64,000 bases of DNA from Escherichia coli (lineage in GTDB: Bacteria > Pseudomonadota > Gammaproteobacteria > Enterobacterales > Enterobacteriaceae): NCBI RefSeq assembly GCF_002854065.1, contig NZ_CP024147.1; one strand, written 5' to 3'. The translations under genes were made by a program, and so were the position numbers. The notes below the pieces were generated by a model. That model did not search any database, had not been told where the DNA came from, and saw only the letters and a program-made list of their open reading frames with translations. Positions 46,693-46,762 of this stretch are shown one piece after another (positions within the stretch are counted from its first letter, which is position 1; every line of letters starts with the position of its first letter).

Positions 46693-46735
46693 AAAAAAGA
46701 GCAATGCCAATTTTATGCACATAATGGCATTGCTC
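46693..46735 (-). terminator. treA rho-independent terminator (11-bp stem GAGCAATGCCA/TGGCATTGCTC, then TTTTTT on minus strand)
   Basis: Strong hairpin and T-run about 30 bp downstream of the treA stop. Confidence 0.6.
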
Positions 46736-46762
46736 GATATACAGCCTCGATATACAGCAAAG

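Follow-up and report, generated by a model that had tools for sequence, protein, structure and literature searches.

A 13-bp tandem duplication polymorphism in the 3′ untranslated spacer of treA in Escherichia coli

Introduction

The classic example of a replication-slippage indel is the CTGG repeat hotspot in lacI. A 13-bp repeat just downstream of treA, the gene for periplasmic α,α-trehalase in Escherichia coli, resembles such indels, as it is a perfect head-to-tail pair of a short unit, has a single-copy ancestor and lies in non-coding DNA beside a hairpin-forming inverted repeat. However, it differs from them in that neither a prior repeat nor junction microhomology is present, and in that one gain only (from one copy to two) is seen, rather than repeated expansion and contraction. 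With MLVA VNTRs and phase-variable contingency loci it shares tandem copies that vary in number from isolate to isolate, whereas the treA site has only two alleles in 2,148 genomes and is stable within haplotype clusters; multiple alleles, a difference among very close relatives and a switch position (promoter spacer or reading frame) are all lacking here. Like the target-site duplications of insertion sequences (IS), the site consists of two identical short direct copies with a boundary that lacks microhomology, but the copies are directly adjacent and no occupied allele exists among 29 contiguous matches of at least 99% identity. The feature belongs with the short tandem duplication polymorphisms, which among small structural variants are the most ordinary class: the identical copies are adjacent and relatives have a one-copy homologous site, although the junction microhomology expected of simple slippage was not found.

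The hairpin next to the repeat has its own counterpart in rho-independent terminators, with which it shares an 11-bp G+C-containing stem that is followed by U6 shortly after the stop codon, while its 15-nt loop is longer than typical and the repeat lies outside the terminator save for 3 nt. Here, we describe the repeat, its distribution among complete E. coli genomes, and what can be said about its origin and consequence.

The Repeat and Its Surroundings

A preliminary description of this DNA had placed a perfect 13-bp tandem duplication at 46733-46758 of the window (the whole stretch analysed, 64 kb in length). Three readings agree on exactly these coordinates, as CTCGATATACAGC is found twice, perfect and head to tail, by direct reading, by a repeat search and by Tandem Repeats Finder (period 13, 2.0 copies, 100% matches, score 52). 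On the plus strand the order is ...AATGGCATTG CTCGATATACAGC CTCGATATACAGC AAAGTTAAGG..., with copy 1 at 46733-46745, where single-copy relatives have a 13-nt gap, and the identical copy 2 at 46746-46758, either of which may be the newer one. No other perfect tandem duplication with a period of 10-40 occurs in the window, where the 13-mer itself is likewise limited to this site on both strands. Perfect tandem duplications of period 13-40 were present in 3 of 1000 simulated 64-kb sequences (first-order Markov), which makes a chance origin of the pair unlikely, and the analytic expectation for them is ~0.0013. A sequencing artefact is likewise excluded, because the two-copy allele is common to 29 independent complete assemblies. 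Membership in a dispersed intergenic repeat family (REP/BIME, ERIC etc.) is not indicated, as the unit occurs at one site only in the window, both strands considered, and has no Rfam hit. A 45-aa plus-strand open reading frame that spans the repeat (46673-46810) was rejected as a conserved gene, since the 13-nt indel shifts its frame between alleles.

The treA coding sequence occupies 46763-48460 on the minus strand, as placed by the RefSeq annotation of matching DNA (identical over 46560-46960 and 42700-50800), the list of open reading frames and the C-terminal translation. Its stop codon, TAA, lies at 46765-46763, and direct reading gives a 4-nt spacer (46759-46762, CTTT on the minus strand) between stop codon and repeat, so that the position just downstream of treA was given correctly in the preliminary description. 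The transcribed (minus) strand thus reads stop codon, CUUU, two copies of GCUGUAUAUCGAG, hairpin and U6. The hairpin (46699-46735, minus strand) was identified by inverted-repeat search, RNA folding and alignment, and consists of a perfect 11-bp stem (46725-46735 paired with 46699-46709) and the 15-nt loop; the U6 tract, seen by direct reading and in the RNA fold, corresponds to A6 on the plus strand at 46693-46698. The fold has a predicted energy of -18.6 kcal/mol (ViennaRNA; z ~ -3.0), and both stem arms are invariant in all backbones examined by alignment. A stable stem-loop followed by a U-tract is hence found 3′ of the stop codon, which fits the class of intrinsic terminators, and the transcript is predicted to end at this hairpin. 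A consensus terminator scan with a loop limit of 8 nt missed it, because the loop exceeds that limit. Repeat and terminator are in contact over 3 nt only, namely CTC at 46733-46735 (GAG on the transcribed strand), the first nucleotides of copy 1 and the base of the arm 46725-46735. The overlap of the copies with the stem, placed previously on its distal arm, is therefore confined to these 3 nt of one copy, and relative to treA transcription the arm is the proximal (5′) rather than the distal one.

A cluster of six iron-uptake genes follows downstream of treA in the same orientation, encoding a substrate-binding protein, a FecCD permease, an ATPase, a SAM methyltransferase, ModD and a TonB-dependent receptor. 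The first of these co-oriented genes, that of the iron ABC transporter substrate-binding protein (45397-46419, minus strand; list of open reading frames and RefSeq annotation), starts 274 nt beyond the U-tract. In EC2641 (locus L016) the FecCD permease gene carries an 18-bp in-frame insertion, CAGCGCCGCGCCCAGTAA, at ~45193 (999 bp vs 981 bp). The cluster belongs to an island at ~39990-46762 that separates ymgE from treA, a place taken by ycgY in K-12-like strains. Strain HS-02 combines a ycgY flank with a treA 3′ end of the island type, and the two meet right at the treA stop codon (~46762). The last ~18 codons of treA (46763-46820) differ sharply between the island type and the K-12 type, while the remaining treA is nearly identical, which suggests an old recombination boundary within the gene. 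The same 3′ coding end holds, on the plus strand at 46766-46791, a terminator-like hairpin with a T-run (AGGCGTAGGTTCCGCCT CTTTTTGTTT), which could be left over from convergent termination on the ycgY side; its count in the scan is at chance level (1 found vs 0.6 expected).

The spacer between treA and the iron-uptake genes varies in other places as well. At ~46613-46690, loci L006-L008 have a 7-bp TGGTATT duplication just past the U-tract that is absent in L005, O157:H7 has an extra ATAAA unit (the loci in this comparison include L004), and G-run lengths are also variable among lineages. The post-terminator sequence AGAATGGGGGG...GTGGCGAAAAA (46670-46697) recurs in degenerate form ~106-112 nt further on as AGAATGGCGGAGTGGCGAAAAA (46564-46585), and the two may represent an old imperfect direct repeat. 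An A+T-rich segment upstream of the iron-transporter genes (46426-46657) contains a pair of 17-nt direct repeats 26 nt apart, TGATAAAATAAAATTAA and TGATAAAAGAAAATAAA, together with weak Fur-box-like matches, the best of which (13/19 at 46432) is equalled or exceeded at 29 window positions; this segment may be a Fur-regulated promoter.

Among other genomes, strain EC1515 has 100% identity over 401 bases around the site, and strain 100416 is essentially identical over 8.1 kb around it, with 9 substitutions over 22700-54413. Further away, an IS1 copy (~54414-55186) abuts an autotransporter gene remnant, which is annotated as partial in strain 100416, and beside this IS1 the window lacks ~200 nt that are kept by 100416, its closest relative, consistent with an IS1-adjacent deletion.

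Ancestral State and Copy Number in the Population

Aligned representatives of 7-8 other junction-bearing backbones, including O157:H7 and SMS-3-5, have one copy each at the same place, either CTCGATATACAGC or CTCGATATACAGT, and the alignment gap falls exactly on one unit. K-12-like strains, with ycgY in place of the iron cluster, are without the 13-bp unit. Judged from these alignments, one copy is the ancestral state and the window allele is a derived duplication, because every divergent background examined is single-copy.

Copy number was surveyed in 5,426 complete E. coli genomes with a query of 191 nt that spans the repeat, and the treA-downstream junction of the window type was present in 2,148 of them. 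The two-copy query was matched at 99% or more in 29 genomes (27 of them full-length at 100%, 2 at 99.5%), while the other full-length matches reach 80-95% and span 6-16 nt less than the query, which the aligned backbones show to be due to a one-unit gap plus backbone indels. A one-copy query, from which one unit had been removed, matched 464 genomes at 99% or more and 238, of the O157:H7 type, at 95-99%; the band of 90-95% comprised 1,447, among them the 29 two-copy genomes with 93.2%. Between the two queries, the band counts reconcile without a two-copy allele on other backbones. With a synthetic three-copy query, no three-copy allele was found in the 5,426 genomes, as the best full-length matches were the two-copy genomes at 93.6%. 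The two-copy allele is therefore present in 1.35% of junction genomes, in 29 of 493 (5.9%) on its own local backbone and in 0 on others, and its carriers include some O169:H41 ETEC plus some animal and environmental isolates.

The site thus appears to be biallelic (one copy or two), and all remaining genomes of the 2,148 appear single-copy. Comparison of copy number among related genomes, which had been set as the check beforehand, hence gave 29 two-copy, ~2,119 single-copy and no three-copy genomes. That the repeat arose by a duplication event is borne out by these numbers (~2,119 of 2,148 junction genomes being single-copy) and by the single copy of the divergent relatives examined. The expectation that copy number may vary between isolates holds insofar as 29 genomes have two copies, but what varies is a fixed one-versus-two indel rather than a copy number that continues to change.

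Haplotypes, Recombination, and Stability

When genomes are ranked by their 8.1-kb flanks, the best 23 (99.5-100%) are all two-copy, whereas below them, among the matches listed, every genome is 12-14 nt shorter, as one copy predicts; five genomes fetched from below the best 23 are all single-copy. No single-copy revertant was found among the 23 closest 8.1-kb flank haplotypes, and the window haplotype cluster is taken to hold none, because a single-copy but otherwise identical genome would rank near the top. Copy number also agrees within the strain pairs EC1515/EC974, XJ34/XJ6-3, and UCPROB-001/002. The site is thus best read as a stable indel and not as a mutable VNTR, because there is no three-copy genome and no single-copy genome among the closest flank relatives.

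Six further two-copy genomes have flanks that are more divergent than those of the 23. In an alignment of 15 flanks from hand-picked genomes, the two-copy allele is spread over at least three local haplotypes, namely the window group, PE164/E105/F2_81 with 2018-05-2CC, and EC2641/873.10, and single-copy genomes are interspersed among the two-copy haplotypes. By the four-gamete test, the duplication is incompatible with 41% (0.411) of 151 informative SNPs, the nearest incompatible ones being at 46511 and 47024, while the mean incompatibility of SNPs with a minor-allele count of 5 is 0.435, and 31% of all SNPs are as incompatible as the duplication or more. The flanking region is accordingly seen, in this sample of 15, as a recombination mosaic. 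Since the duplication is no more SNP-incompatible than SNPs of equal frequency, recombination is enough to explain its spread, and a recurrent origin from multiple haplotypes was rejected as unnecessary. The duplication therefore behaves like any other old polymorphism and is read most simply as the product of one or few origins plus recombination, although a few independent origins or losses may have occurred, given the several flanking haplotypes and the incompatible SNPs at 46511 and 47024.

These data also bear on the alternative of a mutational hotspot or a VNTR-like contingency locus, at which copy number changes often and repeatedly. The presence of the two-copy allele on at least three flanking haplotypes would be expected from such a locus, and other small tandem indels (the 7-bp TGGTATT duplication and the 5-bp ATAAA unit) do occur in the spacer in other lineages. 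However, there are two alleles only and no three-copy genome, the two-copy allele is absent from ~1,650 other-backbone genomes in which unit and hairpin are identical or nearly so, no single-copy genome is among the 23 closest haplotypes, SNP incompatibility is no higher than that of ordinary SNPs, and a 3′ UTR spacer is no place for copy number to switch a gene on or off. A hotspot is thus already largely refuted, and we consider it very unlikely.

Consequence for treA Termination

RNA folding of the 3′ UTR gives the identical 11-bp terminator stem in the one-copy and two-copy alleles, and the repeat alone is unstructured, as it folds no better than shuffled sequences (z = +1.1). No Rfam family was found above threshold at the site; the sub-threshold hits are hairpin-like animal miRNA models and were dismissed as chance matches to the terminator stem. 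Creation of a new promoter by the duplication was rejected, as no promoter-like site overlaps the repeat in a promoter scan. The sole physical change is the distance from stop codon to hairpin, which is 14 nt with one copy and 27 nt with two.

The footprint of a terminating ribosome covers about a dozen nucleotides 3′ of the stop codon. It is therefore conceivable that the duplication alters termination, and hence read-through into the co-oriented iron-uptake operon, but the rarity of the allele argues against this. That the duplication is adaptive for this reason would fit with the change in stop-to-hairpin geometry, with the co-oriented genes 274 nt past the U-tract and with the persistence of the allele across ~0.4-1% flank divergence. 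Against it stand the unchanged hairpin and U-tract and the rarity of the allele, which 29 of 493 genomes carry on the local backbone and none on any other; a sweep is not indicated, and an adaptive effect is accordingly judged very improbable. A more specific form of it, in which the longer spacer moves the hairpin out of the footprint of the terminating ribosome, strengthens termination and insulates the operon, which is probably iron-regulated, from osmotically induced treA transcription, would amount to a lineage-specific cis-regulatory adaptation and is highly doubtful. An adaptive effect concerns the consequence of the duplication and not its origin, and is in this respect compatible with the explanation favored here, in which neutrality of the two-copy allele is assumed.

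Origin of the Second Copy

In the ancestral arrangement, TTG-CTCGATATACAGC-AAAG, comparison of the unit ends with the flanks on either strand revealed no junction microhomology (G|CTC...AGC|A), so that the sequence does not point to slipped-strand mispairing of the classical kind between short direct repeats. The preliminary description had called the repeat a probable slipped-strand duplication; the duplication itself stands, while slippage is only a supposed route to it, because the junction lacks microhomology. The starting point would be a single 13-bp unit between the treA stop codon and the hairpin, to which a replication error beside the hairpin-forming inverted repeat, e.g., slippage or template switching after pausing, would have added a second copy. 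Of the possible routes, an untemplated realignment or a template switch near the strong inverted repeat is, we infer, the most likely one. The second copy would have originated once or very few times, and the two-copy allele would since then have been inherited stably and transferred to a few neighboring haplotypes by homologous recombination. With the terminator stem and the U-tract intact, only the spacer between stop codon and hairpin would have been lengthened, from 14 to 27 nt.

The boundary of the island, or a recombination boundary, was also considered as the cause, but the breakpoint of HS-02 at ~46762 has a ycgY-type flank without the unit and is uninformative on the duplication. The weakest alternative, a transposon footprint in which IS insertion and exact excision left a 13-bp target-site duplication, would account for the zero junction microhomology (as predicted for a filled-in staggered cut) and could draw on the IS1 copies active nearby in the window genome and related genomes and on some IS4-family elements, which produce 11-13 bp target duplications, but it is extremely unlikely, as all 29 matches of at least 99% are unsplit and cover 98-100% of the two-copy query, so that no IS-occupied allele exists on this backbone, and the copies are not separated by any IS-end remnant. 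Bacterial IS excision, moreover, normally leaves no neatly joined pair of target copies, and E. coli, in which products of this sort would not be expected, is not known to have classical end-joining.

Implications

Taken as a whole, the locus is best read as a neutral, lineage-restricted 13-bp tandem duplication polymorphism in the treA 3′ untranslated spacer, to which we assign a probability of roughly 0.85. If the longer spacing altered termination, the two alleles would offer a modest natural test of ribosome-terminator interference, although nothing here indicates so. The 13-bp indel can at best serve as a stable and convenient marker, by PCR size or by sequence, for 29 of the 5,426 genomes, and it provides a natural example of a tandem duplication that lacks junction microhomology beside a terminator hairpin.
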